Shown one piece after another: positions 4,075 through 31,612 of a stretch of 32,000 nucleotides of DNA. The stretch is taken from positions 2,499,279 to 2,531,278 of the forward strand of contig NZ_CP040098.1 in the NCBI RefSeq assembly GCF_005377625.1. Direction: 5' to 3'. The notes below the pieces were generated by a model, which did no database searches, was not told the origin of the DNA, and worked only from the letters and a program-made list of their open reading frames with translations. The stretch comes from Desulfoglaeba alkanexedens ALDC. Lineage in GTDB: Bacteria > Desulfobacterota > Syntrophobacteria > Syntrophobacterales > DSM-9756. The stretch's first letter is position 1, and each line of letters opens with the position of its first letter. The position numbers and the translations under genes were made by a program.

Positions 4075-4108
4075 AAGAAGACAAAGGCAAGCCGGCTCCT
4101 ACAAAAAC

Positions 4109-4828: not shown

Positions 4829-4868
4829 GACGGCATCCTCATAAAAGATTGCTTCAAAGCGCGGGTGG

Positions 4869-6869: not shown

Positions 6870-6917
6870 GGTTTCCTCGTCTTCGAGAAGGGGGCTTCGA
6901 TTTCGACCGGATGTAGA

Positions 6918-6932
6918 GCAACGGGAGTGCCA
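6918..6932 (-). promoter_or_regulatory. Sigma-54 -24/-12 promoter upstream of fliK
   Basis: The reverse complement reads tTGGCACtcccgTTGCTc, a perfect TGGCAC-N5-TTGC match, 49-63 nt upstream of the preferred fliK ATG (6869). Confidence 0.72.
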
Positions 6933-7065
6933 AATGAGCCGGCCTATAGAAGTGGTGTGAATACAGCATCTTATCCGTGGGGTCCGGGGGTTGGCCTTCA
7001 TGAACGGACATGAGGCGGGCAACTTTTGCCGCCTCGGGCTGCAATTGCTTCCCAGCCGCCTGGAT

Positions 7066-11390: not shown

Positions 11391-11518
11391 GGGGAAGCTC
11401 TGCGGCGGAAAGGACGCGCCCGTTTGGCGTTACCGGGGAAGATTTTCCGCGTTTTCTGGACCTCGGCGGGGACGCTTCCTTCAATGGCGGATGGACTTGA
11501 GGCGGTCTTCGTGTCAGA

Positions 11519-12892
11519 ATGCGCACGCTTGCGGGCCAAGACCACTCAGGAAAGGACGTTCAGGTGACGGTGCCGGACGACGACAGCCCTCGAAACCTCA
11601 GGAAAGGATTCAGCACCGGCACCGCCATGGCCGCGGCCGCCCGCGCGGCGCTCCGGCGGGCGCTCACCGGGGAAGCTCCCGCGGTCGTCGCCGTAAAGCT
11701 GCCCATGGGCTTCTACCTTCCGATTCCCGTCGCCTCTTCCGGGACGCATGGCCGTCGCGTCTGGGCGTCGGTGGTAAAAGACGGCGGGGACGATCCTGAC
11801 GTGACCCACGGTGCGAAAATCGTCGTGAGCGTAGCGGCGGGGCGGACGGCGCCGGCGGCATGTTCTTCTTCCGGAAAGCCGCCGGAACGCGCCGGGGTGC
11901 TCCTGGTGGCTGGAGAAGGGGTGGGAAAAGTCACCAAGCCGGGGCTCCCGATTCCGCCAGGCGAACCCGCCGTGAACCCGGTGCCGCGCCGATGTCTCGT
12001 GGAAAACCTGGTGGAAGAATGGAGGCGCTGGAAGCACCTTGCGCGGCCGATACAAACCGCGGAAACGAACGGCGTCGCCGAAGAACCGCCGTGGGGCGCT
12101 GAGCGAAGCGTCGCCGACCCGAAGGGTCCCCGCGTTTGGCTCCCTTTTCCGGAAAGTTCCGGCTGCAACAGGGTGTTTCTCGAAGTGATCGTGTCGGTTC
12201 CCGGCGGTGAGGCGTTGGCGCGGCGCACCTTGAACCCGCGCCTGGGGATCCTCGGCGGCATTTCCATCCTGGGAACCACCGGCATCGTCCGGCCCTTTTC
12301 CCACGAGGCCTACGAAGAAACGATCCGATCGGCGCTGCGGGTCGCCAGGGCCGCCGGCGCCACCACGGTGGTTTTGACGACGGGCGGAAAGAGTGAGAAA
12401 GGGGTGCGGGCGCTTCGACCCGACCTGCCGCCCGAGGTCTTCGTCCAGGTGGCGGATTTTTTCGCTTTTTCGGTGGAAGAATCCCGGCGGCTCGGTTTCC
12501 GAGCCGTGGTCCACGGCGCCTTTTTCGGAAAGGTGGTCAAGATGGCTCAAGGGCATCGATACACCCACGCGCACCGGGTGCCGCTGGACCTCAAGCCTCT
12601 GGCCCGGCGGGCGGCGGCGCTGGGCCACGAAGCGTCTTTATGCGAAGCCTTGGCTGCGGCCAATACCGCTCGGCATGCTTTGGAACTCTTGAAGGCAGCG
12701 GAAGCCCACGATGTGATCGAATCCATCTGCCGGGATGCGGTGGCCGCTTCCCGGGTCTTTTCCGGCGGTCGGCTCCACACCGAACTCCTCCTTTTCGACT
12801 ACGACGGGAGGCTGATCGCCCGCACGGGCGATTCCCGTATCGATTGTCGTGAAGACTCCGCCGGCGCGCTGGGGAAAGGGGCTGCCGGATGA
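11519..12892 (+). CDS. cbiD: Cobalt-precorrin-5B (C1)-methyltransferase CbiD
   Basis: LRKGFSTGTAMAAAARAAL near the N-terminus, GEGVGKVTKPGLPIPPGEPAVNPVPR, and NPRLGILGGISILGTTGIVRPFS are CbiD signatures. An alternative GTG start at 11564 (AGGAAAGGA SD) is possible. The stop overlaps the next gene's ATG (ATGA). Confidence 0.88.
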   Translation: MRTLAGQDHSGKDVQVTVPDDDSPRNLRKGFSTGTAMAAAARAALRRALTGEAPAVVAVKLPMGFYLPIPVASSGTHGRRVWASVVKDGGDDPDVTHGAKIVVSVAAGRTAPAACSSSGKPPERAGVLLVAGEGVGKVTKPGLPIPPGEPAVNPVPRRCLVENLVEEWRRWKHLARPIQTAETNGVAEEPPWGAERSVADPKGPRVWLPFPESSGCNRVFLEVIVSVPGGEALARRTLNPRLGILGGISILGTTGIVRPFSHEAYEETIRSALRVARAAGATTVVLTTGGKSEKGVRALRPDLPPEVFVQVADFFAFSVEESRRLGFRAVVHGAFFGKVVKMAQGHRYTHAHRVPLDLKPLARRAAALGHEASLCEALAAANTARHALELLKAAEAHDVIESICRDAVAASRVFSGGRLHTELLLFDYDGRLIARTGDSRIDCREDSAGALGKGAAG

Positions 12893-14172
12893 GGGACGTC
12901 CCCTCGGCCTCGGGCCCGAAAGCGTGGTCGCCGCCCCGGGTGGTGCTCGCCGGCGTCGGCATGGCGCCGGCCGATGTGACGGCGAGGGTCCGCGAATGGT
13001 TGGAACGGGCCGAAGTGTTGGCTGGCGGCAAACGGCACCTGGAATGGTTCGCGGATCTTCCGGCGGAAAAAATCCCGCTGATTTCGCCCATGGACGAAAG
13101 CCTCCGCCGGATCGTCGCGGTGTCTTCGCAGCGGAAGACCGCGGTTCTGGCTTCGGGGGATCCGCTCTTTTTCGGCATCGGGAGGCGGCTTGTGGAACGC
13201 CTCGGTCCGGAGCGGCTCATCACGTTTCCCAACGTCACGGCGGTGCAGGCGCTCTTTTCCCGCCTGGGCCTTCCCTGGGACGGTGTGGCGGTACGGAGCC
13301 TCCACGGAAGAGACGACCGATCCTGGCTGAGGGTGCTCCGCGATACCGGAAAGCTGGCGCTCTACACGGACGCGGTCCGGTCGCCGGCCGCCGTCGCTCG
13401 GGAACTCCTGGAGGCGGGGATGACGGACTGCGACCTGGCGGTGGGGGAAGACCTGGGACTTCCGGCGGAGCGGGTCCGCTGGATGTCGGCCCGGGAAGCG
13501 TCCGAATCCGACTTTTCGCCGCTCAACGTGATGGCGATCATCCGGCGCCCGGAAGCGGCGGTTCGCGGTGAGGGAGCCCTCGAAGCCCTTGAACCGGTCT
13601 TCGGCCTTCCCGACGAAGCGTTCCACCACCGGTACGGGCTCATCACCAAAATGGAAATCCGGAGCGTGGTGCTGGCGAAGCTCGGCCTGATTCCGGGTCT
13701 GGTGCTGTGGGATCTTGGAGCGGGAAGCGGTTCGGTCGCCGTCGAAGCCGCACGGACGGTGCGTCTTGCCGGGGTCTTCGCTGTGGAAAAACGTACGGAA
13801 CGGGTCGAAGATATCCGAGCCAACGTGCGGCGCCTGGCCTTGGGCGACGTCACGGTGATTTGCGGCGATGCGGTGGAAGCGGTCGCGGAACTACCGGATC
13901 CGGACCGCGTCTTCATCGGCGGAAGCGGCGGCCGCTTGGAAGCGCTCCTTGCGGCGGCGGCGTCGCGGTTGAGGGTCGGCGGGAGGATGGTCGTTACGGC
14001 TGCGACCCTGGAAACGGTGGAAACCGCTCGGTCCTTTTTCGCACGCCGCGGCTTCGCATGCGATATTACGCAGATCCAGGTGAACCGGTCGTCCCCGATC
14101 GGTTCCGCCACGCGTTTTGAGCCGCTCAACCCGGTGTTCATCGTCACGGCGGCATCGGCCGCTTCGGGTTGA
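12889..14172 (+). CDS. cbiET: Fused CbiE/CbiT (CobL-type) cobalt-precorrin-7 C5- / cobalt-precorrin-6B C15-methyltransferase (decarboxylating)
   Basis: 427 aa. The N-half is tetrapyrrole-methylase-like (VVLAGVGMAP...SGDPLFFGIGRRL). The C-half is a SAM-methyltransferase (GLITKMEIRSVVLAKLGL...VLWDLGAGSGSVAVEAA). Confidence 0.9.
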   Translation: MRDVPSASGPKAWSPPRVVLAGVGMAPADVTARVREWLERAEVLAGGKRHLEWFADLPAEKIPLISPMDESLRRIVAVSSQRKTAVLASGDPLFFGIGRRLVERLGPERLITFPNVTAVQALFSRLGLPWDGVAVRSLHGRDDRSWLRVLRDTGKLALYTDAVRSPAAVARELLEAGMTDCDLAVGEDLGLPAERVRWMSAREASESDFSPLNVMAIIRRPEAAVRGEGALEALEPVFGLPDEAFHHRYGLITKMEIRSVVLAKLGLIPGLVLWDLGAGSGSVAVEAARTVRLAGVFAVEKRTERVEDIRANVRRLALGDVTVICGDAVEAVAELPDPDRVFIGGSGGRLEALLAAAASRLRVGGRMVVTAATLETVETARSFFARRGFACDITQIQVNRSSPIGSATRFEPLNPVFIVTAASAASG

Positions 14173-14187
14173 GAGGGAGGAGGCGCC

Positions 14188-14964
14188 ATGCGTCATGCCA
14201 TCGTTTTTGTCGGGGCCGGCCCGGGCGATCCGGAGCTCATCACGGTCAAGGGGCGGCGGCTCATCGAAGAAGCCGACCGGATCGTCTACGCGGGCTCCCT
14301 GGTTCCGGAAAGGCTTCTTGCGGCGCGAAAGCCCGGCGCCGAAATCTTCGACAGTGCGCCGCTCACCCTGACCGAAACGCATGCGTTCCTCTTGGAAGGT
14401 TACCGGGCGGGCCTGCGGGTGGTGAGGCTCCACACCGGCGACCCCGGACTTTACGGCGCCGTCCGGGAACAGATGGATCTTCTGGATCGCGACGGCGTCC
14501 CCTACGAGGTGGTGCCGGGAGTGACGGCGGCCTTCGCCGCCGCGGCCGCCCTTAAGCGGCAGCTCACGCTGCCCGAAGTGTCCCAGACCGTCATTTTCAC
14601 CCGCTGTTCCGGACGGACGCCGGTCCCGGAGCGGGAATCGCTCCAGAGCCTGGCGGCTCACCGAAGCACTTTGGCCATTTACCTCAGCGTGCACCACCTG
14701 GACCGGGTGGTGGAAGACCTTTTGGTGCATTACCCGCGGGAAACGCCCGTGGTGGTGGCCTACCGGGTGGGCTGGCCGGACGAACGCCTCGTGCAGGGGA
14801 CCTTGGAAACCATCGTGGACCGGGTGCGGAGCGAAGGCATCGCCCGTCAGGCTTTGATCCTCGTGGGCGAGGTGTTGGAGATCGGCCGGCAAGCCCCCCG
14901 ATCGAAGCTCTACGACGCAGGTTTCGAGCACGGGTTTCGCCCCGGCCGAACCCGGGGGGATTGA
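14188..14964 (+). CDS. cbiF: Cobalt-precorrin-4 C11-methyltransferase CbiF/CobM
   Basis: 258 aa. VFVGAGPGDPELITVKGRRLIEEADRIVYAGSLV, RLHTGDPGLYGAVREQ, VVPGVTAAFAAAAAL and PEVSQTVIFTR...GRTPVPE track the CbiF sequence I remember almost motif for motif. GGAGGAGG SD. Confidence 0.93.
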   Translation: MRHAIVFVGAGPGDPELITVKGRRLIEEADRIVYAGSLVPERLLAARKPGAEIFDSAPLTLTETHAFLLEGYRAGLRVVRLHTGDPGLYGAVREQMDLLDRDGVPYEVVPGVTAAFAAAAALKRQLTLPEVSQTVIFTRCSGRTPVPERESLQSLAAHRSTLAIYLSVHHLDRVVEDLLVHYPRETPVVVAYRVGWPDERLVQGTLETIVDRVRSEGIARQALILVGEVLEIGRQAPRSKLYDAGFEHGFRPGRTRGD

Positions 14965-14968
14965 GGTC

Positions 14969-16111
14969 ATGGCATGGGAGGGCGACCGCCGGGACGAAAG
15001 CTCCCGTCCGGGGAGTATCGCTGTGGCGGCCATAACCGCCGGCGGCGTCCGGCTGGCGCTCCAAATCCAGGCGCAACTTCCTGGAAGCATCTGCTATGTG
15101 CCTCGACGCCATGCGTTCGCGCTCGTCATGGGCGCCCGGCCTTTCGACCGGCTGAAAGACCTGGTGCCCGAAATCTGGACGCGCCACCGGGCTATGGTGT
15201 TCGTCATGGCGACCGGCATCGTGGTGCGGCTCATCGCGCCGCTTGTCCATCAGAAGATGCGGGACCCCGCCGTGGTGGTGGTCGACGAGAAGGGGCGCTT
15301 CGTCATCAGCCTGCTTTCCGGCCATTGGGGCGGCGCCAACGCCTTGGCCGAATCGGTCGCTCGGATCACCGGCGGCCTGCCGGTGGTCACCACGGCAAGC
15401 GACGTGTGCCGGCGGCCGGCCATCGATCTTCTCGCCCGCAAGGCGGGACTCGTCATCGAAAACCCCGAAGCACTTCCGCGCATCGCCCGGGCCGTTCTGG
15501 AAGATGAACCGCTTTGGCTTTTCGACCCGGCGCGGCGCCTGGGACTTTCGCAGGCCGACCTGCCTCAGGTCCGGTTCTGGGACGAAAGCCATCCGGCTTG
15601 GGAGCCTCGGCGGACGTCGGCCACGGCGGAAGCCGGCGACGCGGCAGGGGAGGAGCCGAGCGGCTCGGCCGAACTCATCGGCGTTTGGGTGTCCGAAAAG
15701 GCTTCCAACCCCGAAGGCCTTTGGCTGCGCCTTCGCCCGCGAAGCCTGGTAGTGGGCGTCGGGTGCAACCGGGGGACCTCTGCGGAAGAGATCCTCGAAG
15801 TGGTCCGGCGGGTTCTGGACGATGCGGGGCTCGCGCCGCCGTCGATCCGAAATTTCGCCAGCGTGGACCTCAAAGCGGACGAGGCTGGGCTACTGGAAGC
15901 GGCCCGCCGGCTGGATCGGCCGCTGGAATTCTTTTCACGCAAAGACTTGAGGGACGTGGCGGTTCCGCGCCCGTCCCGTCGAGTCGCCGAACACATCGGA
16001 GTACCCAGCGTATGCGAAGCAGCAGCAATCCTGAGCGCCGGAAGCCGGAAGCTTCTCATTTCGAAGCAGAAAGCGGGCAACGTGACGGTGGCCGTGGCCG
16101 GGGTGGACTGA
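14969..16111 (+). CDS. cbiG: Cobalt-precorrin-5A hydrolase CbiG
   Basis: 380 aa. MVFVMATGIVVRLIAPLVHQKMRDPAVVVVDEKGRFVISLLSGHWGGANALA is the CbiG N-domain signature. The C-domain has VGVGCNRGTSAEEI...SVDLKADEAGL...GVPSVCEAAA. It starts 4 nt after the cbiF stop. Confidence 0.9.
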   Translation: MAWEGDRRDESSRPGSIAVAAITAGGVRLALQIQAQLPGSICYVPRRHAFALVMGARPFDRLKDLVPEIWTRHRAMVFVMATGIVVRLIAPLVHQKMRDPAVVVVDEKGRFVISLLSGHWGGANALAESVARITGGLPVVTTASDVCRRPAIDLLARKAGLVIENPEALPRIARAVLEDEPLWLFDPARRLGLSQADLPQVRFWDESHPAWEPRRTSATAEAGDAAGEEPSGSAELIGVWVSEKASNPEGLWLRLRPRSLVVGVGCNRGTSAEEILEVVRRVLDDAGLAPPSIRNFASVDLKADEAGLLEAARRLDRPLEFFSRKDLRDVAVPRPSRRVAEHIGVPSVCEAAAILSAGSRKLLISKQKAGNVTVAVAGVD

Positions 16112-16116
16112 GTCTT

Positions 16117-16923
16117 GTGAGCCTGGGCCCGGGATTCGTGGAACACATGACACCCCGGGCCTTGGCCGCGCTCGCCGACGCCGAGGTGGTTGTCGGCTAC
16201 AGGACCTACCTGGATCTGGTTTCTGAGCTGATCCAAGGCAAAAGGACCGTCGCGAGCGGTATGCGAAAGGAAGTGGCGCGCTGCCGGGCCGCCATCGACG
16301 AGGCGCTTTCGGGAAGCCGCGTGGCTCTCATTTCCAGCGGCGATGCGGGGATCTATGGGATGGCTGGCCTGGTGTTCGACATCTGCAGGGAACGCGGTGT
16401 GGCCGTGATCCCCGCAAGCGCGGACAACGACCGGGAGCCGGAGGACCGAAGTTCGGGACCGGCGGAAAGCGACGGGGTCCCGCTGAGGGTGGAAGTCATC
16501 CCGGGTGTCGCGGCCTTCAACGCGGCGGCCGCACGCCTCGGCGCGCCGCTCATGCACGATTTCGCCGCGGTGAGCTTGAGCGACCACCTGACGCCCTGGC
16601 CCGTGATCGCGGGGCGCCTGGAAGCCGCCGCCCAGGCCGATTTCGTTCTGGCCATCTACAACCCGCGAAGCGGCTCCCGGCCGCACCGGCTTTCGGAAGC
16701 CCGCGATATCCTGCTTCGCCACCGGCCGGCGGAAACTCCGGTGGGCCTTGTGCAACGCGCCATGCGAGACGGCGAAGCGCGGCGGCTGGCGACCCTTGGA
16801 ACCCTGCCGGTGGAATGGGTGGACATGCAGACGGTGGTCCTGGTGGGAAACAGCCGCACCTATGTCTGGAACGACTGGATGGTGACGCCGAGAGGCTACC
16901 TGGACAAGTACGACGTGGAGTGA
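16117..16923 (+). CDS. cbiH: Cobalt-precorrin-3B C17-methyltransferase CbiH/CobJ
   Basis: The track ORF (15514..16923) is an in-frame upstream extension overlapping cbiG. A GTG at 16117, 5 nt after the cbiG stop, gives (M)SLGPGFVEHMTPRAL, which keeps the conserved GPG. Other signatures are GYRTYLDL, ALISSGDAGIYGMAGL, GAPLMHDFAAVSLSDHLTPW, FVLAIYNPRS and MVTPRGY. Confidence 0.86.
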   Translation: MSLGPGFVEHMTPRALAALADAEVVVGYRTYLDLVSELIQGKRTVASGMRKEVARCRAAIDEALSGSRVALISSGDAGIYGMAGLVFDICRERGVAVIPASADNDREPEDRSSGPAESDGVPLRVEVIPGVAAFNAAAARLGAPLMHDFAAVSLSDHLTPWPVIAGRLEAAAQADFVLAIYNPRSGSRPHRLSEARDILLRHRPAETPVGLVQRAMRDGEARRLATLGTLPVEWVDMQTVVLVGNSRTYVWNDWMVTPRGYLDKYDVE

Positions 16924-16945
16924 CGGATAGGATGCCGTCTCATGC

Positions 16946-16980
16946 CCTGTAGGAGCCGGCTTGCCGGCGATCAGGGTCAA
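16946..16980. repeat. Solo type-B left arm
   Basis: CCTGTAGGAGCCGGCTTGCCGGCGATCAGGGTCAA, located between the convergent cbiH and HDOD gene ends. Confidence 0.8.
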
Positions 16981-17014
16981 CACGGCTTTCATGAGTTTGT
17001 TTTTGGACAAGCCC

Positions 17015-17860
17015 TCAGCTGAAGAGCGTCGTCGCCTCGGCGGCGAAGATGGTGCGGATTTCTTCCAGAAGATCTTCGATTTTCGCCGGAGACATCTTGA
17101 GGGCCTTGGCGCTTTTCACTTCGGAAAGTTCCAGGTCGGGACGCTTGGTGGGGCCGATTTCCAGCTTGTGGCAGAACGCGTTGGCCAGGTGGACGATCAC
17201 CGTTAGAGCCGGAAGCAGGCGGGCTCGGGCCGGTGCGTGGTGACAGCCGATGGCTTCTTCGATTTCTTCCGCAAACTGCCACTTGCGGGCGAGAAGCTGA
17301 CCCACCTGGGCGTGGTCGAATCCCAGCAGGCGCTGCTCCATCCTCACAAAGGAGGTTTCCGGGTCATTGTAGACTTCCTCAAGGATGGAGAGCATCTTGT
17401 CGTTGAATTTTATGAGCAGGATCATCTTTCCCACGTCGTGGAGCAGCCCCGCCAGGAAGGCTTCTTCGGCCTTGGAATACCGGAGGCTCTGCGCGATGGT
17501 TCGGGCCGCCAGGCCGCATCCCAGCGAATGCTCCCAGAGCAGCTTTTCCGTCAGCCCGAAGTTGTCGAAGATGTCCCGCGTAACGGAGGCGACCACCAGG
17601 GATCGGATGGTTCTGAAGCCGATCACCACTACGGCTTCCGTAATGGTGGCGATGGACCGGGACCGGGCGTAAAAGGACGAATTGGCCAACTTGAGGACTC
17701 GGGCGGCGAGCGACTGGTCCTGGGAAATGATGCGCTGGAGGTCCTGAGCGGTGGTGTCGGGGTTGGACACCATGGTCATGACCTGACTGGCCACGTGAGG
17801 CATGGCGGGAAGGTCGCCGGCGGTCAGTACGACTCTTTGCACGGAAGATTCGGTTGCCAT
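17015..17860 (-). CDS. HDOD domain-containing signalling protein
   Basis: Start set at ATG 17860 (MATESSVQRVVL) rather than the TTG at 17968, whose extension is Arg-rich. LPAMPHVASQVMTMVSNPDTTAQDLQRIISQDQSLAARVLKLANSSFY is the canonical HDOD N-region, followed by a later LLHDVGK. Confidence 0.85.
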   Translation of the reverse strand: MATESSVQRVVLTAGDLPAMPHVASQVMTMVSNPDTTAQDLQRIISQDQSLAARVLKLANSSFYARSRSIATITEAVVVIGFRTIRSLVVASVTRDIFDNFGLTEKLLWEHSLGCGLAARTIAQSLRYSKAEEAFLAGLLHDVGKMILLIKFNDKMLSILEEVYNDPETSFVRMEQRLLGFDHAQVGQLLARKWQFAEEIEEAIGCHHAPARARLLPALTVIVHLANAFCHKLEIGPTKRPDLELSEVKSAKALKMSPAKIEDLLEEIRTIFAAEATTLFS

Positions 17861-18097
17861 CGGCAGCGTAAGCTCCAATCTGCGGCGAAGGGAACGTCGG
17901 GCGTGGTTTGCATCACCGCTTGCCGCCGCCAAGCGGCCGGCCGACCGCCGACGGCAAAGCGACGCCAAACTCTATATCGAACAGATGCGGTGTCTTCTTG
18001 AGTCAAAAATGATGGGAGAAGCGCTCTGTGAGATGAGCCATCCTTCGAGGCGTTGGCTGCGGTGCGGGTTCAGCAGCAGGTGATCGTTTCCTTTGAG

Positions 18098-18440
18098 GCT
18101 GTCTGAGAATACCCTTCACCCTTTGGGGATTGAGTGTCCGTTTTTTTCGCGTAGGGGCGGTTCGCGAACGGCACCTAAGGAGCGATTCGTGCCCTGTAGG
18201 GGCGCAGCGGCGCTGCGCCCCTACTCGCCGGCGATCAGGGTCGATGCGGCATGGCCGGTTTACGGGTCGCGGCGAGGGTGCCGCTCCTGCGGGGTCTGGG
18301 TCGCGGGCAAGCCCGCTCCTACCGATAACGGAACAGCGGGCCAGTTGCCTTCCACCTTATTCCCAAGCTCCAGATTGGGAACACAGCTATGCACAAACTC
18401 CAGATTGGGAACACAGCTGCGCAGAAGTTCCAGCTTCGAT
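18098..18440. repeat. REP/MITE-like array (type C, type B variants, type-A with tandem duplication)
   Basis: Type C at 18098-18143. A 13-bp-arm palindrome GTAGGGGCGCAGC-ggc-GCTGCGCCCCTAC lies at 18196-18224. A type-B right arm TCGCGGGCAAGCCCGCTCCTAC is near 18301-18322. A type-A variant ATTCCCAAGCTCCAGATTGGGAAC lies at 18359-18382, followed by a ~31-bp tandem duplicate and GAAGTTCCAGCTTC. Confidence 0.85.
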
Positions 18441-18582
18441 TCCCATAAGGCCGTGATCCCCATGCGAATCCGCAACAAAATCCATACTAAAGAACCCAAA
18501 CACCCCTGCCTCGTCATATAAAGGCTGCGGCGTCCGCGCTATCCTTCCCCGCCCTGAACGACGGAGCTTGTCGCGGAACTGG

Positions 18583-18945
18583 TCAAACCCAGTGCCCGCC
18601 GGTATCGGGGGCCTTGGTCGACTGCAGTTTCCCGGCCTTGTAGTTTTCAACGGCCTGCCGGACTGTGCCGGTTACGTTGACGAAAACGGGGATCCCCGCG
18701 GCGCGCAGGGTATCGAAGGCCCTGGGGCCGCAGTGGCCGGTAAGAACGGCGTCGGGTTTGAGACGCGCCACGGCGGCTGCGGCTTGAACCCCGGCGCCTT
18801 GAGCCGCCTGAAGGTTCTGCTGGTTGGGGATTACCTCGAAGTTCATCGTTTCCGTGTCCACAATGAGAAAACTGGGCGCCCGGCCGAAACGGGCGTCGAC
18901 CGGTGCTTCCAGGTTCTGACCGCTTGATGTTACGGCGACTTTCAT
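18583..18945 (-). CDS. NifB/NifX-family (FeMo-cofactor-binding-like, MTH1175-like) small protein
   Basis: Start ATG 18945 (MKVAVTSSGQNLEAPVDARFGRAPSFLIVD; AAGGATGA SD). FGRAPxFxIVD plus ...AVLTGHCGPRAFDTLRAAGIPVF... match the NifX/NifB-C domain pattern. Confidence 0.85.
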   Translation of the reverse strand: MKVAVTSSGQNLEAPVDARFGRAPSFLIVDTETMNFEVIPNQQNLQAAQGAGVQAAAAVARLKPDAVLTGHCGPRAFDTLRAAGIPVFVNVTGTVRQAVENYKAGKLQSTKAPDTGGHWV

Positions 18946-19053
18946 AACAGATTCATCCTTTCGTTGAGGGGAGCCGCTCCTAAAGCAATCGAGTCCACCG
19001 CGCCTCAGGGGTGAACCCCTTTCCATGGGATTGCGGGCGATGGATTTCGAAAG

Positions 19054-20307
19054 TCAGTGGTCGCAGACGTTCGGGCCGGTCTCGAGAGAGCCGTCAAGGT
19101 ATTTCTGAAGCAGGGCATCGGGATCCATCACCGGGGCTCCCGTCACCACTCGGATGCCTTGTTCCGCGAACTGGCTGATGGCCCGCTGCCCCATGCCGCC
19201 GGAGATGACCACCTTGATACCCTGGTTCGCCAGCCACCGGGGAAGAAGCCCCGGTTCGTGCGGCGGCGGCGTGACCCATTCCCTGCCGTCCACGCGGCCG
19301 TCTTTCACGCTGAGGATGGCGAACTGTTCGCAATGGCCGAAATGGTTGCACAGTACTCCTTGAGCCGTGGGGATGGCCACTTTTAAGGCGTTGCCGCCGG
19401 CCGCCGAAGCGACTTCCGGCTTTGCCGCAACGGTTTTGGCGGCGGTGGGGGCTTCCGCCGGCAGGCACCGTTCTTCGACGGCGTCGATGAGTCGATTCAC
19501 GGCCTGGATGAACGGCGTGTCGCTCGGACCTTCCATGAAGGGCCGTCCCGCGTCGCCGCCTTCGACGACCCGCGGATCGAAGGGAAGGCTTCCCAAGAGC
19601 GTCAGCTGCATCCGTTCCGCGGTTCTGCGGCCGCCGCCTCTACGGAACAGGTCGATTTCCTTGCCGCAATGAGGGCACACCAGGCCGTCCATGTTTTCCA
19701 CCAGTCCCAGGATGCTCATCTGGACCTTGCGACAGAAATTGATGGATTTTCGCACATCGGCAAGGGCCACTTCCTGGGGCGTCGTGACGATCACAGCGTG
19801 AGCGTCGGGTATGGTCTGAGCCACGCTGAGCGGTTCGTCGCCGGTTCCCGGCGGGCAGTCGATCACGAGATAATCCAACTTCCCCCAGTTCACTTCGGAA
19901 ATGAATTGTTTGATAACGCCATGTTTTATAGGCCCCCGCCAGATCACCGCCGAGTCCCGGTCTTCCAGCAGGTACTCGATGGAGACCACTTCCAGGTTTT
20001 CGTTGTAGCGGTGCGGGATGAGCCGCTTGTGTTCGTCCATGCCGAACATGCCGGTGATGCCGAGCATCCTCGGGGTACTGGGGCCATGGAGGTCCACGTC
20101 CATGAGGCCCACCTTGTATCCCCTGTTGGCGAGCCCCAAGGCGATGTATACTGCGACGCTGCTTTTCCCCACCCCGCCCTTGCCGCTCATAACCAACAGC
20201 TTGTGCTGGATCTGCTGAAGTTGACGGTGAAGCTGCTCCTCTTCCTGGGACGCGGCGTTTTTCTCGGCTCCGCCGTGGCCGCAGGAACCCTTCTCGCAAC
20301 TGCCCAT
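19054..20307 (-). CDS. Mrp/ApbC/NBP35-family P-loop ATPase fused to a C-terminal NifB/NifX-like domain
   Basis: Start ATG 20307 (MGSCEKGSCGHGG; GGAGAG SD), not 20985, because that extension crosses promoter and repeat DNA. Deviant Walker A LVMSGKGGVGKSS and the Mrp CxxC motif (CPHCG) are present. The C-terminus LKVAIPTAQGVLCNHFGHCEQFAILSV...VVISGGMGQRAISQFAEQGIRVV is a NifX-like domain. Confidence 0.88.
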   Translation of the reverse strand: MGSCEKGSCGHGGAEKNAASQEEEQLHRQLQQIQHKLLVMSGKGGVGKSSVAVYIALGLANRGYKVGLMDVDLHGPSTPRMLGITGMFGMDEHKRLIPHRYNENLEVVSIEYLLEDRDSAVIWRGPIKHGVIKQFISEVNWGKLDYLVIDCPPGTGDEPLSVAQTIPDAHAVIVTTPQEVALADVRKSINFCRKVQMSILGLVENMDGLVCPHCGKEIDLFRRGGGRRTAERMQLTLLGSLPFDPRVVEGGDAGRPFMEGPSDTPFIQAVNRLIDAVEERCLPAEAPTAAKTVAAKPEVASAAGGNALKVAIPTAQGVLCNHFGHCEQFAILSVKDGRVDGREWVTPPPHEPGLLPRWLANQGIKVVISGGMGQRAISQFAEQGIRVVTGAPVMDPDALLQKYLDGSLETGPNVCDH

Positions 20308-20408
20308 GGTGCTCTCTCCTTCCTCAATGTTGAAATCGAAAGGGAACGATGTTTCGGCTGCCTTCGGACGCCGTAACCACCGGCCAACCTGGCTCACGCT
20401 GCTTTCGA

Positions 20409-20423
20409 GCAAAGTCTGTGCCA
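20409..20423 (-). promoter_or_regulatory. Sigma-54 -24/-12 promoter upstream of the mrp-nifX-like unit
   Basis: The reverse complement reads tTGGCACagactTTGCTc, a perfect TGGCAC-N5-TTGC match, about 100 nt upstream of ATG 20307. Confidence 0.75.
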
Positions 20424-20499
20424 AGACTTGCCGGAAAGGATCTTTCAGGGGAACGCGGGAGCGGCGGACGGCCGGAGGCGGTACCCGACGTGAGGGAAT

Positions 20500-20516
20500 G
20501 GGTGCAGATCGCACCC
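20500..20516. promoter_or_regulatory. Putative enhancer (UAS) palindrome GGGTGC-N5-GCACCC
   Basis: GGGTGCagatcGCACCC(gg) begins 77 nt upstream of the -24 element. The same palindrome occurs 76 nt upstream of the second sigma-54 promoter, at 25013-25029. Confidence 0.55.
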
Positions 20517-20774
20517 GGCCGGTGTGCGGCCGGTTGCAGAACGCCTCCGGCTGGAAGTGCCGGCCCTGGATGTGCCGGCCCGAGGGGGATCGTTTCCAAT
20601 AACCCCCATGACCCCGTGGGGTCACAACGAAGCATGAAAATTCGGGATACGGGGCAGTGGGGTAGAGCTCAAAAAAATGGCACAATAACCAATCGACATT
20701 ATTGGTGGATCTTCTATTTTCATACAAACGTAAGACAGGGCCGGTGCCTTGACACGGCAAACCGAGGCGATCTT

Positions 20775-20853
20775 CTGTAGTAGCCGGCTTGCCGGCGATC
20801 AGGGCCGACGAGGCATTGCCGGTTTTACGGGTCGCGGGCAAGCCCACTCCTAC
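20775..20853. repeat. Complete type-B composite element
   Basis: CTGTAGTAGCCGGCTTGCCGGCGAT-cagggccgacgaggcattgccggttttacgggt-CGCGGGCAAGCCCACTCCTAC. Its right end overlaps the stop codon of the activator gene. Confidence 0.85.
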
Positions 20854-22277
20854 AAATGAAACGAATCGGATAAAGAAGATTCGGACCGCGAGGGTGAGGG
20901 ATCGGTCAGGCGGTAGCGTTTCATCTTGCGCCGGAGGGTGTTTTTGTCGATCCCCAACTCGCGGGCGGTGGCCATGCGTCGCCACGCGTTTCGTTCCAGG
21001 GCCTCCCAGATGGCTCGGCGTTCGACGTCTTTGAGGGTGGAGCCCGGTTCGGGAGGGAGTCGCTTGCTTTGCGCGCGCAGGTGTTCCGGGAGGTGTTCGG
21101 GTCGGATGAGGCCGTCCGAACAGAGGATGAAGGCGTGTTCGATGGCGTTTTCCAATTCGCGGATGTTTCCCGGCCAGTCGTGGTGCATGAAGACGGCGAG
21201 GGTTTCCCGGCTGAGCCCGGCGACGGTCTTGTCTTGGAGGCGGTTGAAGCGATCGATGAAATGCTGAGTGAGCAGCGGGATGTCTTCGCGGCGTTCACTG
21301 AGGGGCGGAAGCCACAGCTTGACCACGTTGACGCGGTAGTAGAGGTCTTTTCGAAAGATGCCCCGTTCGACCAATTCTTCCAGGTCTTTGTTGGATGCGG
21401 CGATGATCCGGACATTGGCCTTGACGCTTTTCGACGACCCGAGCGGCTCGTAGACACGTTCTTCGATAACGCGAAGGAGCCTCACCTGGAGGGCCGGCGA
21501 GACGTCTCCGATTTCATCGAGGAGAAGAGTTCCGCCTTCCGCCAGGGCGAAACGTCCTTGCCGGGCCTTCTTCGCGTCGGTGAAGGCTCCGGCCACGTGC
21601 CCGAAAAGTTCCGATTCCAAGAGGGTGTCGGGAAGGGCCCCGCAGTTTACGGCGACGAAGGGGCCGCGGGCCCTCGGGCTCATGGAATGCAGCGTACGTG
21701 CGAGCACCTCCTTGCCCGTGCCGCTTTCGCCCTGGATGAGCACGGTGCTTTCGCTGCGGGCGATTTCCGGGAGGATAGCGAAAAGCTTCTGCATGGCGGG
21801 AGACTTGGAGACCATGTCCCCGAAGCTGTAGCGGCGGTGGAGCTCCCGGCGGAGTCTTTCCACCAGGCTGAGATCCCGGAAGGTTTCCACGCCGCCGATC
21901 ACCCGGCCTTCGGCGTCTTTGAGGAGCGCGGTGCTCACGCTGATGGGGATTTCTTTGCCTTCGGCGGTTAGGATGGCGATGGGTTTGTCGACGATGGGCT
22001 TTCCGGTCTCCAGGGTGTGGCGGAGCGCACAGGCCGTCTCGCAGATGTTGGCCCGGAAGACTTCGCAGCAGGGCCGCCCGATGGCTTCATCCTTCGGTAT
22101 GCCGGTGATGATTTCCGCGGCTCGGTTGAACCACGTGATCCGGAAATCGCGGTCCACGGTGAAGACACCGTCGGCGATGCTGTTCAGGATGATTTCCGTC
22201 GATCCGGCGCAGGAAAGGGGCGTCGCGGGGGGTTCCCGGTTTTCGGCGGGCTTCGATGAAGAGATCTTGGAGTCCAT
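20850..22277 (-). CDS. Sigma-54-dependent transcriptional activator (PAS - AAA+ - Fis-type HTH)
   Basis: 475 aa with an N-terminal PAS domain ([30 protein letters not shown]). The AAA+ sigma-54 interaction module has Walker [24 protein letters not shown] and RIIAASN. The C-terminal HTH reads [22 protein letters not shown]. Confidence 0.92.
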
Positions 22278-22322
22278 GCCGGGAATGCCCCGCGGTTCGG
22301 GAAACGGATCGACCGGTGTTGG

Positions 22323-23246
22323 TCACCGATCGAGCATGGAGGCCGGAATCGATGTCGTGGGGTTGGCTTCGGTTTCATCCGTCGATCGCGGAATGTCCGC
22401 TTCGAGGATTTCCCAGAAACGACGCACGGCATCAGCCACAGGATTCTTATCGTATTCGACGACGGTGAGGCCGTCAACCTGGGCACGGGTGACAACGGGG
22501 TCGAAGGGGATGTGCCCGAGAAAGGGGATGCCTTTCCGAGCGCAGTTTTCTTCGATTTCACGGGCGGCGTCCCAGAAGAGGTCGGCCTTGTTCACGCAGG
22601 CGAAGGCGGGGATTCCGAAATGAGCCGCCAGCTCCGCTGCGCGCGCCAGATCGTGGATCCCGGAAACCGTCGGTTCGCTCACGATGAGCACCGCGGACGC
22701 GCCTCCGATGGAGGCGATCACCGGGCAGCCGATTCCCGGCGGGCCGTCGGTCAAGATCCATTGGAGATTGCGTTCTTCCGCCAGCCGCCTGGCTTCCTTG
22801 CGAACCAGGCTCACCAGCTTTCCCGAGTTTTCTTCCGCTATGCCGAGCCGGGCGTGGATCAGCGGCCCGAAGCGCGTCTCCGAAACGAACCACTCTCCGC
22901 AGTGGTTTTCAATGAAATCAATGGCGCCGGCGGGGCAGAAGTAATAGCAGACGCCGCAGCCTTCGCAGAGGAACTCGTTCACGACGAGGTGCTCATCGAT
23001 GGCTTCAAACCGGCACCACTTCGCGCATTCACCGCATTCGATGCAGCGGTCCGCCTGGATCACGGCCTTCCGGCCGGAAACGAAATCGTGCCGCTGAACG
23101 ATGTTCGGAGCCAGCAGGAGGTGAAGGTCCGCCGCGTCCACATCGGCGTCACAGAGAACCTTGTTTTGGGCCACGGCGGCCAGAGCCCCCACCAGGCTGG
23201 TCTTGCCGGTACCGCCCTTTCCGCTGATTACAACGAGTTCTCGCAT
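22323..23246 (-). CDS. MinD/ParA/CooC-type P-loop ATPase with inserted 2x[4Fe-4S]-ferredoxin motifs (paralog B)
   Basis: Start ATG 23246 (MRELVVISGKGGTGKTS; AAGGA SD). The track extension to 23906 merely overlaps the upstream gene. Ferredoxin motifs are CIECGECAKWC and CEGCGVCYYFCP. The MinD-like core has LTDGPPGIGCPV. Confidence 0.88.
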   Translation of the reverse strand: MRELVVISGKGGTGKTSLVGALAAVAQNKVLCDADVDAADLHLLLAPNIVQRHDFVSGRKAVIQADRCIECGECAKWCRFEAIDEHLVVNEFLCEGCGVCYYFCPAGAIDFIENHCGEWFVSETRFGPLIHARLGIAEENSGKLVSLVRKEARRLAEERNLQWILTDGPPGIGCPVIASIGGASAVLIVSEPTVSGIHDLARAAELAAHFGIPAFACVNKADLFWDAAREIEENCARKGIPFLGHIPFDPVVTRAQVDGLTVVEYDKNPVADAVRRFWEILEADIPRSTDETEANPTTSIPASMLDR

Positions 23247-24103
23247 GTCCTGTCCTTTTCCGAACTTGCCTCGTGCAGGTCGAGGATGGAATCCAAGAGT
23301 TGCCGCATCATGCGGCGCCATTGCGGAAGTCGCTCCACCAGCAGTTCGCCGCGGGCGTATGCTTCGGCCGCTTTTCGGTCGAAGGGGATTTCCAGGAGCA
23401 CCGGAAGCCCTTCCCCGGCTGCATACTGCCTGACCCGGCCGTTGCCCATGTCCGAACGGTTGATCACCAGTCCCGCGGGCAGGTTCATCTTTCGAACGAC
23501 CCCAACGGCCAGTTCCAGGTCGTTCAGGCCGAAAGGCGTTGGTTCCGTTACCAGGAGTGCGAAATCGGTCCCGTAGAGCGACGTCACCACCGGGCAGGAT
23601 GTGCCCGGTGGCGCGTCGACGATGGTGAGGTCTTCGGTGACGGTGATGGATCGGATGCGGCGGATGAGCGGAGGCGCCATGGCCTCTCCGATCCTCAGCC
23701 GGCCGTGCGCGAACCGAACAGGCCCGCGCCGGCCCATCTCGAGGGTTCCTACGATCCGACGGCCCGGCTTTACGGCGTCTTCCGGGCAGACCATGAAGCA
23801 GCCGCCGCAGCCGTGGCAGAGTTCGGGGAAGGTGAGCACCGTTTCCGGTAGCACGGCGATGGCGTTGAATTGGCAGATTTCCTGGCACCTCCCGCACAAG
23901 TTGCAACGGTCCATGTCGATTTCCGGCACCTCGATGGTGACCTCTTCGCTGTGATCCAGCACCGGTTTCAAAAACAAGTGCGCGTTCGGCTCTTCCACAT
24001 CGCAGTCGAACAAAGCGACAGGCCGATCCGCGGCCACCGCAAGATTTACGGCCAGGGTGGTCTTTCCGGTTCCTCCCTTGCCGCTCGCCACAGAGATGAT
24101 CAT
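23228..24103 (-). CDS. MinD/ParA/CooC-type P-loop ATPase with inserted 2x[4Fe-4S]-ferredoxin motifs (paralog A)
   Basis: 291 aa starting MIISVASGKGGTGKTTLAVNLA. Ferredoxin motifs are CNLCGRCQEICQ and CHGCGGCFMVCP, and the core has DAPPGTSCPV. GAGGAGGGAGGA SD. The 3' end overlaps paralog B by 19 nt. Confidence 0.88.
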   Translation of the reverse strand: MIISVASGKGGTGKTTLAVNLAVAADRPVALFDCDVEEPNAHLFLKPVLDHSEEVTIEVPEIDMDRCNLCGRCQEICQFNAIAVLPETVLTFPELCHGCGGCFMVCPEDAVKPGRRIVGTLEMGRRGPVRFAHGRLRIGEAMAPPLIRRIRSITVTEDLTIVDAPPGTSCPVVTSLYGTDFALLVTEPTPFGLNDLELAVGVVRKMNLPAGLVINRSDMGNGRVRQYAAGEGLPVLLEIPFDRKAAEAYARGELLVERLPQWRRMMRQLLDSILDLHEASSEKDRTCENSL

Positions 24104-24193
24104 CAGAAGTCCTCCCTCCTCAACGGTTCCTTCAGGCCGGTGGGCCGTCCACGCCGGGTTTCTAAAACCGGTGCACCGCCGCCCGCAAGCCGT

Positions 24194-24853
24194 TCACTTG
24201 CTTACCATGGGTTTGCCGCATTCGGGGCAGGACATCTGGGTGCACGGAATGCCCAGCTGATGTTCCACCTCCCTGCCGCAGGAGGGACACACGCAAAGCC
24301 CCGAGCGATTGGCGCCTTGACGGCCGGGGCCCGTCCCCGTTCGGCGACAACCTCCTCCCTGACCGCGTCCTCCTCCTTGACCACGTCCTCCCCCTCCGCC
24401 TCCGCCTTGACCGCGTCCTCCGCCTTGACCACGTCCTCCGCCTTGACCTGGCATGACCGCTCCTTTCTGAGCGCCGAGCGCCCTCTGCCCCGACTCCCAA
24501 CAGGCCCGGTACCGGCGAAATCCCCGGCATCCCGGCAGTTGAAAGCGGGGTTGATCCAAATGTCCCCGCCGGTAGGCTTGCAGCACCTCGTCTACATCCC
24601 CAGCAACGCCGAAGACGACCGTGAGACCCAGGCCTTCCGCGTAATGGAGAAGATCCGGGCTGAGGCTCCCGCAGATGAGCTTGGTGACGCCGCGGTCCCG
24701 CAGCTGCCGAACCCGCTGAAACGGATCCGAGGAGTTCATCAACAATTCTTGGGGCGGGGCGCTGGTTTCAGTGCCGTCCGTGACCAGCAGGAGGCGTGAA
24801 CACCAATTGAGAACCGGAGCCACGCGACCGCGCAAAACGGGTATCGCCAGCAT
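24194..24853 (-). CDS. NifB/NifX-like domain fused in frame to a Gly/Arg-rich repeat and a C-terminal Cys-rich zinc ribbon (DUF5320-like tail)
   Basis: Start ATG 24853 ([14 protein letters not shown]; GAAGGAGGTG SD). The N-domain ...[40 protein letters not shown] is NifX-like. It is followed by (RGQGGG)n and then [30 protein letters not shown]. Confidence 0.75.
24351..24451 (-). repeat. 18-bp tandem coding repeat (five units, one expanded) encoding RGQGGG
   Basis: The plus-strand unit is CCTCC(G/T)CC(T/C)TGACC(G/A)CGT. Units lie at 24351-24368, 24369-24386, 24387-24416 (expanded), 24417-24434 and 24435-24451. Confidence 0.85.
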
Positions 24854-24922
24854 GCGGCCACCTCCTTCCCCCGGCGCATGGGATTGGAAAAGCCTCGATC
24901 GTCGTTGTCGAGACCTCATGGG

Positions 24923-24937
24923 GCACATATCGTGCCA
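24923..24937 (-). promoter_or_regulatory. Sigma-54 -24/-12 promoter upstream of the nifX-like/minD-fer4 unit
   Basis: The reverse complement reads tTGGCACgatatGTGCc. The -24 element is perfect and the -12 is GTGC (GC conserved, one mismatch to TTGC). It lies 70-84 nt upstream of ATG 24853. Confidence 0.62.
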
Positions 24938-25012
24938 AACGGGGGGTGCAGGGGAAGCACGGCGGCTTGGAGGCGCCCTCGGCGAATTTTCCCGGTCGTG
25001 GCGGCGGGAGAC

Positions 25013-25029
25013 GGGTGCTAAACGCACCC
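25013..25029. promoter_or_regulatory. Putative enhancer (UAS) palindrome GGGTGC-N5-GCACCC (second copy)
   Basis: GGGTGCtaaacGCACCC(gg) begins 76 nt upstream of the -24 element at 24932-24937. It matches the 20500-20516 site in both half-sites, in the spacer length and in the trailing GG. Confidence 0.55.
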
Positions 25030-25078
25030 GGTCATTCCCGCCGGCGGGTGTTTCATGTTTCCCGAACCGTCGGTCCGG

Positions 25079-25267
25079 TCATTTTTCGCTTTTGAAACTT
25101 TCTTGGAAAACCTGCGGATCGATGTTTCCCGAATCCGGCCCGCCGCATTCCGGAATGTAACAGGTAACGTCCACGAATTCGCATTTTTCCTTGCAGGACG
25201 GGCAGACGTTCGGCGGGTTCGGCATCTCCACCGTGCTACCACAATGGTTGCATTTCCAAACCGGCAT
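25079..25267 (-). CDS. Small rubredoxin-like / zinc-ribbon protein
   Basis: 62 aa: MPVWKCNHCGSTVEMPNPPNVCPSCKEKCEFVDVTCYIPECGG, with CxxC...CxxC knuckles plus extra Cys. A strong AAGGAGGA SD precedes ATG 25267. Confidence 0.75.
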   Translation of the reverse strand: MPVWKCNHCGSTVEMPNPPNVCPSCKEKCEFVDVTCYIPECGGPDSGNIDPQVFQESFKSEK

Positions 25268-28330: not shown

Positions 28331-28337
28331 GGGCGGC

Positions 28338-28592
28338 CGGGTAGGGCGACGAAGTTTTGCGAATCGCGGGCAAGCCCGCTCCTACCGAAAAAGGTAAACC
28401 CGGGCGGCCCCTCTCCGCTTTGTTCCCAAGCTCCAGCTTGGGAACACAAGCGTGCAGAAGCTCCAGCTTCGATATTCACCGCATCGCGATCAGCGTTGAT
28501 CTATCGAAGACCATGCAATCGTTGAAATCCTTTGCAGCGAGGCGAAGCTGGAGCTTCGCGGGCAGGGCGTTCCCAAGCCAGAGCTTGGGAAC
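28338..28592. repeat. REP/MITE-like array (type-B right arm, two type-A palindromes)
   Basis: ...TCGCGGGCAAGCCCGCTCCTAC. Type-A copies at 28422-28445 and 28569-28592. GAAGCTCCAGCTTC at 28457-28470 and GAAGCTGGAGCTTC near 28545-28558. Confidence 0.85.
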
Positions 28593-28781
28593 GAGGGGAA
28601 AAGCGCCCCGATTGCGAAGCAGGACGGGATATGGTATGCGTGCTCGCAATGGATCAGGGGTTTCGGCCGGGGATTCGTTCTGCAATGGTTGAGCGGATGG
28701 ATACGGCGGGAATTCGTGGAAATCTATCCCGGTCCTCCGGATCGATGAGTTGCAGAGGCACGACGGGAAGAAGGGAAGCAG

Positions 28782-31096: not shown

Positions 31097-31266
31097 CGTA
31101 CGGCTCGGCCTGAGAAGGCATTTTGTGGACGAAGCGTTGAGCACTGTGCCCGCTACGACCGTGCCGATAGTTTACTGCAGCGAACTGGAAATGGAGTATG
31201 TAGCGGGGTTTCGACGGAAGAGGAGCTTCTCCGAAAACTCAGATGGATGCAGATCTTTTGCTTCTT

Positions 31267-31612
31267 GTTCCCAAGCTCCAGCTTGGGAACACAACTGTGC
31301 AGAAGCTCCAGCTTCGGTGAGGCCGTTCCCAAGTCAGGCTTGGGAACGAGCGGAAACGAGGGGGAAGACCACTTCGAGATCCTGGCGAGCTCCCTAGAAA
31401 GACAGTGCGTTTCAGCTGTAGCAGGAGGGAAGCTGGAGCTTCCCGGGTAGGGCGTTCCCAAGCCAGAGCTTGGGAACGAGGGGAAGGAGCGACTCATGCC
31501 CTGTAGGAGCCGGCTTGCCGGCGATCCCGATCGCGGCGAGGGCGCCGCTCCCACAGATGGTTTACAACGCGGCGAAGGCGCCGCTCCCACGGGGATCTGG
31601 ATCGCGGCCTTT
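31267..31612. repeat. REP/MITE-like array (three type-A palindromes, type-B units)
   Basis: Type-A copies at 31267-31290, 31325-31347 and 31453-31476. GAAGCTCCAGCTTC at 31302-31315 and GGGAAGCTGGAGCTTCCC at 31427-31444. CCTGTAGGAGCCGGCTTGCCGGCGAT at 31499-31524, followed by two GGCG(A/C)GGGCGCCGCTCCCAC units. Confidence 0.85.

Follow-up and report, generated by a model that had tools for sequence, protein, structure and literature searches.

The subject of this analysis is a 32-kb stretch of the Desulfoglaeba alkanexedens ALDC genome (contig NZ_CP040098.1, positions 2,499,279 to 2,531,278), hereafter the window, and in particular a set of genes on its minus strand that we compare with the orp (ORange Protein) cluster of Desulfovibrio vulgaris Hildenborough (DvH). 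The open reading frame (ORF) listing of the window places seven ORFs head to tail on this strand, spanning 18583-25267, and all seven genes that an initial annotation had described there as co-directional are present. Start codons were picked from ribosome-binding sites together with homologues. In the order in which they would be read, the genes are the following, with the basis of each call in brackets:

25079..25267, minus strand: gene 1, a rubredoxin-like protein of 62 amino acids (aa), a neighbour and not a member of the orp regulon (marginal Pfam match)
24194..24853, minus strand: gene 2, a predicted Orp7::Orp5 fusion of 219 aa (hhalign, AlphaFold and the family resemblance of its C-half)
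23228..24103, minus strand: gene 3, an Orp4-like MinD-type ATPase of 291 aa with an inserted 2x[4Fe-4S] ferredoxin domain (Pfam)
22323..23246, minus strand: gene 4, an Orp3-like MinD-type ATPase of 307 aa with an inserted 2x[4Fe-4S] ferredoxin domain (Pfam)
20850..22277, minus strand: gene 5, orpR, a PAS/sigma-54 AAA+/Fis-HTH (helix-turn-helix) enhancer-binding protein of 475 aa (Pfam)
19054..20307, minus strand: gene 6, MrpORP, the Orp9 homologue, an Mrp/NBP35 P-loop ATPase joined to a NifX-like (Di-Nase) domain, 417 aa (NCBIfam NF041136)
18583..18945, minus strand: gene 7, ORP, the Orp8 homologue, a stand-alone NifX/MTH1175-like protein of 120 aa (Pfam Nitro_FeMo-Co and a match in PDB)

The DvH cluster, DVU2103-DVU2109, was described in 2011, according to its citation in a later paper (Fievet et al., J Bacteriol 193:3207, cited in PMC8359166), and further studies of it followed (Fievet 2014, 2021; Pardoux 2019). 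Its genes comprise orp3, orp4 and orp5 (DVU2103-2105), orpR (DVU2106) and orp7, orp8 and orp9 (DVU2107-2109). By the DvH definition, the ORP complex joins Orp3, Orp4, Orp5, Orp8 and Orp9 physically. The Orp9 protein, MrpORP, is defined by a deviant Walker A motif, a CXXC, the signatures CXHFGHCE and TPPPHXPGXXP, and a terminal CDH; it carries a [4Fe-4S] cluster on the CXXC and a [3Fe-4S] cluster in its Di-Nase domain, and it transfers its cluster to Orp3/Orp4 (PMC6345978). The product of gene 6 has all of the published motifs (GKGGVGKS, CPHC, CNHFGHCE, TPPPHEPGLLP and the terminal CDH) and is recovered by the NCBIfam MrpORP equivalog model NF041136 with 533 bits against a cut-off of 450, while Pfam resolves it into a ParA/NUBPL domain (325 bits) and a Nitro_FeMo-Co domain (62 bits). 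It is 49% identical to Dde_3202 and 47% identical to DVU2109, alignments that span both domains; the sequences of these two proteins were rebuilt from the supplementary alignment of PMC6345978. Using DVU2109 as the query, we retrieved the DvH contig bearing orp7-orp8-orp9 (L084) and the complete cluster of Oleidesulfovibrio alaskensis G20 (Dde_3197-Dde_3202, on L087). The window protein has just two N-terminal cysteines and lacks the long linker of the DvH protein, being of the same short type as the O. alaskensis MrpORP (417 versus 415 aa).

The stand-alone NifX-like protein encoded by gene 7 matches Pfam Nitro_FeMo-Co with 77 bits, and its best sequence match in PDB is the orange protein of Desulfovibrio gigas (2WFB, E 2e-21, full length). 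Over 119 aa it is 42% identical to DVU2108 of DvH and 43% identical to the O. alaskensis ORP, and the C-terminal GHW is common to them. The D. gigas protein, to which Orp8 is homologous, holds a non-covalent [S2MoS2CuS2MoS2]3- cluster (PMC6345978); it has the NifX/MTH1175 fold in common with gene 7, for which binding of a Mo-Cu-S cluster is only predicted by homology. The two MinD-like proteins each combine a Pfam CbiA/ParA domain with two Fer4 motifs and share 35% identity with one another. Each has its reciprocal best partner among the O. alaskensis paralogues, the Orp3-like protein being 46% identical to the 308-aa paralogue versus 31% to the other, and the Orp4-like protein 44.5% identical to the 316-aa paralogue versus 34% to the other. 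Both fall far below the NCBIfam models for MinD itself (60-61 bits against a cut-off of 202 for the archaeal model and 31-39 against 213 for the bacterial one). The ParA/NUBPL, CbiA, Fer4 and Nitro_FeMo-Co assignments, for which the initial annotation had recommended profile searches, are thus supported by Pfam, save that the NifX-like part of gene 2 is sub-threshold in Pfam and is upheld by other means (see below). The top named homologues of the window genes come from Desulfobaccales, Desulfobacca, Syntrophobacterales and Desulfacinum.

The regulator encoded by gene 5 unites the Pfam domains PAS, Sigma54_activat and HTH_8 and is 49% identical to the O. alaskensis OrpR over 481 aa. Its PAS domain bears the motif C70-x-E72-x6-C79-x3-C83, in which the spacing is identical to that of C52/E54/C61/C65 in the DvH protein, and its AAA+ domain carries the unusual GAFTDA loop, as listed for DVU2106. 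The DvH OrpR is a redox sensor in which three PAS cysteines hold a [4Fe-4S] cluster; the two orp operons make up its entire regulon, and their expression is limited to very low redox potential (PMC8359166). Both operons depend on sigma-54 and are activated by OrpR, with integration host factor (IHF) required (PMC3897727). In the window, the corresponding sites, including upstream activating sequences (UAS), are predicted as follows:

24922..24937, minus strand: sigma-54 promoter P2, TGGCACGATATGTGCC, about 70 nt 5' of the gene 2 start
25013..25029, strand not applicable: UAS2, predicted OrpR site, the perfect palindrome GGGTGCGTTTAGCACCC, 75 nt 5' of P2
20408..20423, minus strand: sigma-54 promoter P1, TGGCACAGACTTTGCT, an exact match to the consensus TGGCAC-N5-TTGCT, about 100 nt 5' of the mrpORP start
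20500..20516, strand not applicable: UAS1, predicted OrpR site, the perfect palindrome GGGTGCGATCTGCACCC, 76 nt 5' of P1

P2 has two mismatches to the extended consensus and retains the -24 GG and the -12 GC. A search with the published DvH operator gave a single hit with three mismatches, from which the local palindrome was re-derived; in its perfect form, GGGTGC-N5-GCACCC, this palindrome has exactly two copies in the window, UAS1 and UAS2. It is related to the DvH OrpR site GGGCGYRTTTTGCGCCC (PMC8359166), the pattern common to the two being GGG(C/T)GC-N5-GC(G/A)CCC. The pairing of P1 with UAS1 and of P2 with UAS2 is kept in L003, a contig 94-95% identical to the window, in which P2 is identical. 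At the distant locus L076 a palindrome with one mismatch stands at the same 76-nt gap from a sigma-54 element, and in ten additional loci with an OrpR-like gene the leading Orp gene has a sigma-54 element directly 5' of it. The idea that there are two sigma-54 units with the activator between them is borne out. The orpR gene starts 45 nt after orp3 and no terminator intervenes, which makes read-through plausible; hence, the orp7::5-orp4-orp3 transcript may plausibly continue into orpR and give positive autoregulation. A scan for sigma-70 promoters yielded counts at or below chance, and no convincing terminators were seen; one weak sigma-70 candidate lies ahead of orpR (22477-22449, minus strand).

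Just 5' of UAS1, at 20532-20590 on the minus strand, a second palindrome, GGTTGCAGAACGCCTCC, imperfect by three mismatches, occurs together with direct repeats of GCCGGCAC. Both are kept in L003, and this element could be an auxiliary OrpR site or a bending site. In comparison with L003, a repeat element has been inserted in the window between the orpR stop codon and UAS1 (20600-20860, corresponding to 13250-13400 of L003).

The protein specified by gene 2 consists of a divergent NifX-fold domain (residues 1-113), a Gly/Arg tract that is disordered (about 130-182) and, at residues 183-219, a Cys6-His ribbon. In the AlphaFold model the N-terminal domain has a pLDDT (predicted local distance difference test score) of about 90, disorder extends over residues 114-182, and a small ribbon is confidently predicted for residues 183-219. 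Pfam scores the NifX-like domain at 18 bits, under the cut-off of 26.3. Nitro_FeMo-Co is matched, however, by 24 of the 25 full-length homologues, a family profile search matches NifB/NifX-like PDB entries, and in a fold search the modelled domain superposes on PH0822, TM1816, the D. gigas ORP 2WFB and NifX; since these three lines agree, the NifX-like call is rescued. More specifically, the family profile aligns with DVU2107 (Orp7) in hhalign (probability 92.8%, E 3.8e-7, residues 7-111), covering the whole domain up to a common (L/M)PGC end. The C-half belongs to a family of stand-alone proteins of 58-96 aa encoded beside Orp4-like genes in other genomes, which take the form MPRGDGTGP, a Gly/Arg-rich stretch and then CxCPxCG...H..G.PC....CPxCG. 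The C-half also occupies, ahead of orp4-orp3, the place where DvH has Orp5, a small Gly/Arg-rich protein with cysteines. The DvH Orp5 N-terminus, as deduced from a cloning primer, reads MPYGDGT (PMC6345978 supplement), a comparison of only seven residues. DUF5320 was tried as an identity for gene 2 and rejected, the stand-alone homologues being likewise sub-threshold (17-22 bits versus 27).

The putative fusion is common in the lineage of the window, with hundreds of full-length metagenomic homologues, and the Orp7-like and Orp5-type parts are separate genes in most other genomes; their union in one polypeptide argues that Orp7 and Orp5 act together. The tract between them has 8 Arg and zero acidic and zero aromatic residues, and the underlying DNA (24351-24448) is an 18-nt tandem repeat present in 5.8 copies. 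Its length varies widely among the homologues, in some of which it is short or nearly absent; taken with the tandem repeat, this suggests that the tract expands and contracts by slippage. The public call of gene 2 is longer, at 241 aa (L001 3470-4195, equivalent to 24194-24919 of the window), and its start codon lies 3 nt 3' of the -12 element, before transcription would be expected to begin. A GGAGG ribosome-binding site precedes the ATG at 24853, which is likely the true start.

Set beside the DvH cluster, the window encodes the same proteins, namely Orp3, Orp4, a putative Orp5-type part, an Orp7-type domain, Orp8/ORP and Orp9/MrpORP, with 42-47% identity for those that are directly comparable. 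The regulator likewise has the PAS Cys-Glu-Cys-Cys motif and GAFTDA, and there are likewise two sigma-54 units with related palindromes. The differences are in arrangement. The DvH operons are divergent, whereas the window genes all lie on one strand with orpR between the units; the divergent layout can hardly count as a defining trait, given that in O. alaskensis, too, the cluster runs in one direction. In the window the second unit reads mrpORP-orp8 in place of orp7-orp8-orp9, the promoters conform to the canonical TGGCAC-N5-TTGC where those of DvH read CGGCAT-N5-CTGC, and Orp7 and a putative Orp5 part are joined in a single protein, unlike in DvH. In O. alaskensis, ORP, OrpR, both ATPases and MrpORP are 43-49% identical to their window counterparts; there, orpR comes first and is followed by a single six-gene run, and the Orp7-like protein (142 aa) has a gene of its own, as does a small Gly/Arg/Cys protein (89 aa). 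The window locus is distinctive for its co-directional order with orpR in mid-set, for the putative Orp7::Orp5 fusion and for its canonical promoters without a recognisable IHF site. Taken as a whole, these data make it very probable that the minus-strand locus is an orthologue of the orp cluster, encoding the anaerobe-specific ORP complex together with its dedicated regulator.

The orp set already has a name and an NCBI naming model, its regulator has been characterised and its proteins have been in part; it is not uncharacterised. The proposal that these genes form a system without an assigned function thus falls away before the studied OrpR and MrpORP. One can see how a genuinely uncharacterised system, unrelated to any published one, might have been supposed, as Pfam alone yields generic domain names and most database homologues carry equally generic ones, e.g. 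"MinD superfamily P-loop ATPase" or "NifX family protein". The one-to-one orthology with the studied orp genes of DvH and D. alaskensis, the OrpR motifs and the operator refute that view, and we regard it as hardly tenable.

The NifX-fold domains might also call to mind accessory genes for the biosynthesis of the nitrogenase FeMo-cofactor, with NifX/NafY-type carriers and NifH-like ATPases; weak Fer4_NifH matches in the MinD-like proteins point the same way, as does NifA being the top NCBIfam match of OrpR. That match, however, is well under the model cut-off (354 versus 529 bits). The orp clusters occur in non-diazotrophs such as DvH, which counts against a nif role. As the initial annotation had remarked, there is no nifHDK, nifEN or nifB nearby: none is found among the main ORFs of at least 150 aa in the window, nor in the loci L003 and L087. 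A role in nitrogenase maturation is accordingly rejected as scarcely credible.

We examined how the orp set is distributed by means of a scan that took one genome per species and was anchored on the Orp4-like protein, and the counts that follow refer to its best 80 loci, DvH not being among them. The Orp3-like gene adjoins the Orp4-like gene in 77 of the 80, and at least one NifX-like gene lies within 6 kb in 78, so that the synteny analysis which the initial annotation had advised bears out co-conservation of this core. The remaining components are more sparsely represented: an Mrp gene in 35, a small Cys-ribbon protein in 31, and a full-length OrpR-like activator in 14, most of these activators having both the cysteine motif and GAFTDA. 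The loci span Desulfobacterota, Planctomycetota, Omnitrophota, Chloroflexota, Bacillota and other phyla, a spread that fits the published label "anaerobe-specific". Gene order varies among them, the order in the window being common to L003 and L004. OrpR has been described as restricted to Deltaproteobacteria (PMC8359166). Two contigs from metagenome-assembled genomes labelled Planctomycetes encode OrpR-like activators with Cys-x-[DE]-x6-Cys-x3-Cys and GAFTDA (L058 5175-6518 and L069 6621-8099), and in both a sigma-54 element either immediately precedes the first NifX-like gene or coincides with its predicted start.

How the system might operate can be pieced together from the DvH experiments and the sites present here. 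At low redox potential OrpR would hold a [4Fe-4S] cluster on Cys70/Glu72/Cys79/Cys83 of its PAS domain and occupy both GGGTGC-N5-GCACCC palindromes, and its AAA+ domain, by way of the GAFTDA loop, would open sigma-54 RNA polymerase at the -24/-12 promoters 75-76 nt downstream. Two units would thereby be switched on, orp7::5-orp4-orp3, probably running into orpR, and mrpORP-orp8; a rising redox potential would turn both off. A dimer of MrpORP, bridged by a [4Fe-4S] cluster on its CPHC motif, would pass this cluster to the ferredoxin inserts of Orp3 and Orp4, as has been demonstrated with the homologues from DvH and D. alaskensis. ORP, the C-terminal domain of MrpORP and the Orp7-like domain are predicted to provide NifX-fold pockets holding metal-sulfide clusters, the Orp5-type Cys ribbon may bind a [2Fe-2S] cluster, as an Orp5 homologue does, and the two MinD-type ATPases would move or insert clusters using ATP. 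The scaffold and carrier logic that had been suggested for these genes agrees with the published transfer of clusters from MrpORP to Orp3/Orp4 and with the Mo-Cu-S cluster of ORP (PMC6345978). We infer that the ORP complex is an ATP-driven handler of metal-sulfide clusters under sulfidic, strongly reducing conditions and not a division system of the Min type.

Several points weigh against this identification and the function we draw from it. Expression, complex formation and metal content in D. alkanexedens are all inferred. The Orp5 half of the putative fusion is the weakest link, as it rests on architecture and the seven-residue N-terminus; the 89-aa counterpart in O. alaskensis is Gly/Arg/Cys-rich and lacks the CxCPxCG ribbon, with no BLAST match to the C-half, and the C-half gives no significant match to Pfam DUF5320, the family that the initial annotation had put forward for a search. 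IHF, which DvH requires, has no site in either 75-76-nt spacer at up to two mismatches from the consensus WATCARNNNNTTR, which is that of E. coli, and bending by the IHF/HU of the host remains compatible with this result. Finally, the hypothesis that the original authors themselves put forward for the role of the ORP complex is cell division.

On the division hypothesis the complex would be a Min/ParA-like spatial regulator of division or chromosome segregation, with its Fe-S and NifX parts serving for maturation or redox sensing. Orp3, Orp4 and MrpORP are indeed deviant Walker-A ATPases of the MinD/ParA/Mrp class; moreover, inactivation of orpR is reported to lead to morphological defects and MrpORP to be polar, and Orp3/Orp4 have predicted C-terminal amphipathic helices (PMC8359166, PMC6345978, PMC4672049). 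Yet no minC, minE, divIVA or fts gene is found anywhere in the window, the locus included, and it is to NifX-like proteins that the ATPase pair is linked in nearly all of the scanned loci, not to division genes. The sole solved biochemistry is that of cluster binding and transfer, and the original authors call the role "still unclear" (PMC8359166). We therefore consider a division role unlikely and prefer cluster handling, because the ATPase pair is tied to the NifX fold and the biochemistry concerns clusters.

On a different alternative, the NifX folds and the cationic tract could sequester or store anionic thiometallates (thiomolybdate/copper) or iron-sulfide (thioferrate) arising in sulfidic habitats, binding them electrostatically in the manner of IssA of Pyrococcus furiosus. 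In IssA a NifX-fold (IPR003731) domain is followed by a disordered, Gly-rich cationic tail, and the protein binds anionic thioferrate (PMC5524996); gene 2 has the same succession of a NifX fold and a disordered tract rich in Arg and free of acidic residues. The two are compared here by architecture and not by clade, gene 2 being of the Orp7 branch and its tract ending in a Cys6-His ribbon. The non-covalent cluster of the D. gigas ORP and the confinement of DvH orp expression to very low redox potential would also suit storage. Against it, the Gly/Arg tract has none of the aromatic residues of IssA tails, and many homologues have a short tract or none; genes for the transport of Mo, W or Cu are absent from the vicinity, and passive storage needs no three ATPases. 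Storage thus appears quite unlikely in comparison with the cluster handling preferred here. A more particular version, in which the fusion would act as an electrostatic clamp for an anionic linear metal-sulfide, either a thiometallate like Mo-Cu-S or a thioferrate-like chain, is by analogy conceivable and, in our estimation, a long shot. If true, the ORP complex would use ATP to store and dispense metal-sulfide in sulfidic anaerobes and would not be a division apparatus.

The rubredoxin-like gene 1 is the member of the proposed seven-gene set that does not hold up. Its 62-aa product matches the rubrerythrin-type rubredoxin knuckle (Pfam RUBY_RBDX) marginally (26.6 versus 26.5 bits) and is below the cut-off of the NCBIfam RCKP-type rubredoxin-like model. 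The gene lies upstream of UAS2 and P2, which places it outside both sigma-54 units, and it occurs in one of the 80 related loci, in addition to the near-identical contigs L001 and L003. On its position and the missing co-conservation it was rejected as an orp member. The flanks of the O. alaskensis cluster (L087 2901-4848 and 11530-13906) contain oxygen-defence genes: one flank encodes desulfoferrodoxin, rubredoxin and a flavodiiron ROO-like protein, and the opposite one cytochrome bd oxidase. A rubredoxin-type gene beside orp thus recurs in that genome, but in a different operon.

The surroundings of the locus are dense in intergenic repeats resembling repetitive extragenic palindromic (REP) elements or miniature inverted-repeat transposable elements (MITEs), of two types, the hairpin GTTCCCAAGCTCCAGCTTGGGAAC in 11 copies and GTAGGAGCCGGCTTGCCGGCGATCAGGGTC in 7 copies. 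They lie at 3988-4108, 7197-7389, 10970-11396, 16942-16985, 18206-18440, 20759-20855, 28335-28608 and 31209-31551; two of the clusters bracket the mrpORP-orp8 unit, and the repeats create spurious ORFs with peptides of the "AGKPAPT" type. Directly downstream of ORP is an HDOD/HD-domain gene (17015-17968, minus strand). In L003 the two are parted by three genes (15400-18800) for a major facilitator superfamily transporter, a CdhD-like protein and a 4Fe-4S ferredoxin, which are missing from 18093-18521 of the window, where there are only repeats. A cobalamin biosynthesis block on the plus strand (11519-16923) encodes CbiD, a fused CbiE/T-like methylase, other precorrin methylases and CbiG; no cobalamin riboswitch was found for it at the Rfam gathering score, and Rfam and tRNA scans of the whole window recovered no RNA genes. 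Further exact -24/-12 matches to the sigma-54 consensus at 2426-2441 and 6917-6932 (both on the minus strand) lie ahead of flagellar genes (fliM at 8-994, motA at 1565-2329 and a fliK-flgD-flgE block at 2662-7022) and belong to the ordinary flagellar sigma-54 regulon.

The identification of this locus removes a false lead, in that it belongs to a system already published, and the cellular role of the ORP complex is no easier to approach from here than from DvH. The gain is comparative: the design of operator and promoter, with a palindrome 75-76 nt 5' of the -24/-12 element, has been kept well outside Desulfovibrio, in a lineage that, going by the top named homologues, is nearer to Desulfobacca and Syntrophobacterales.

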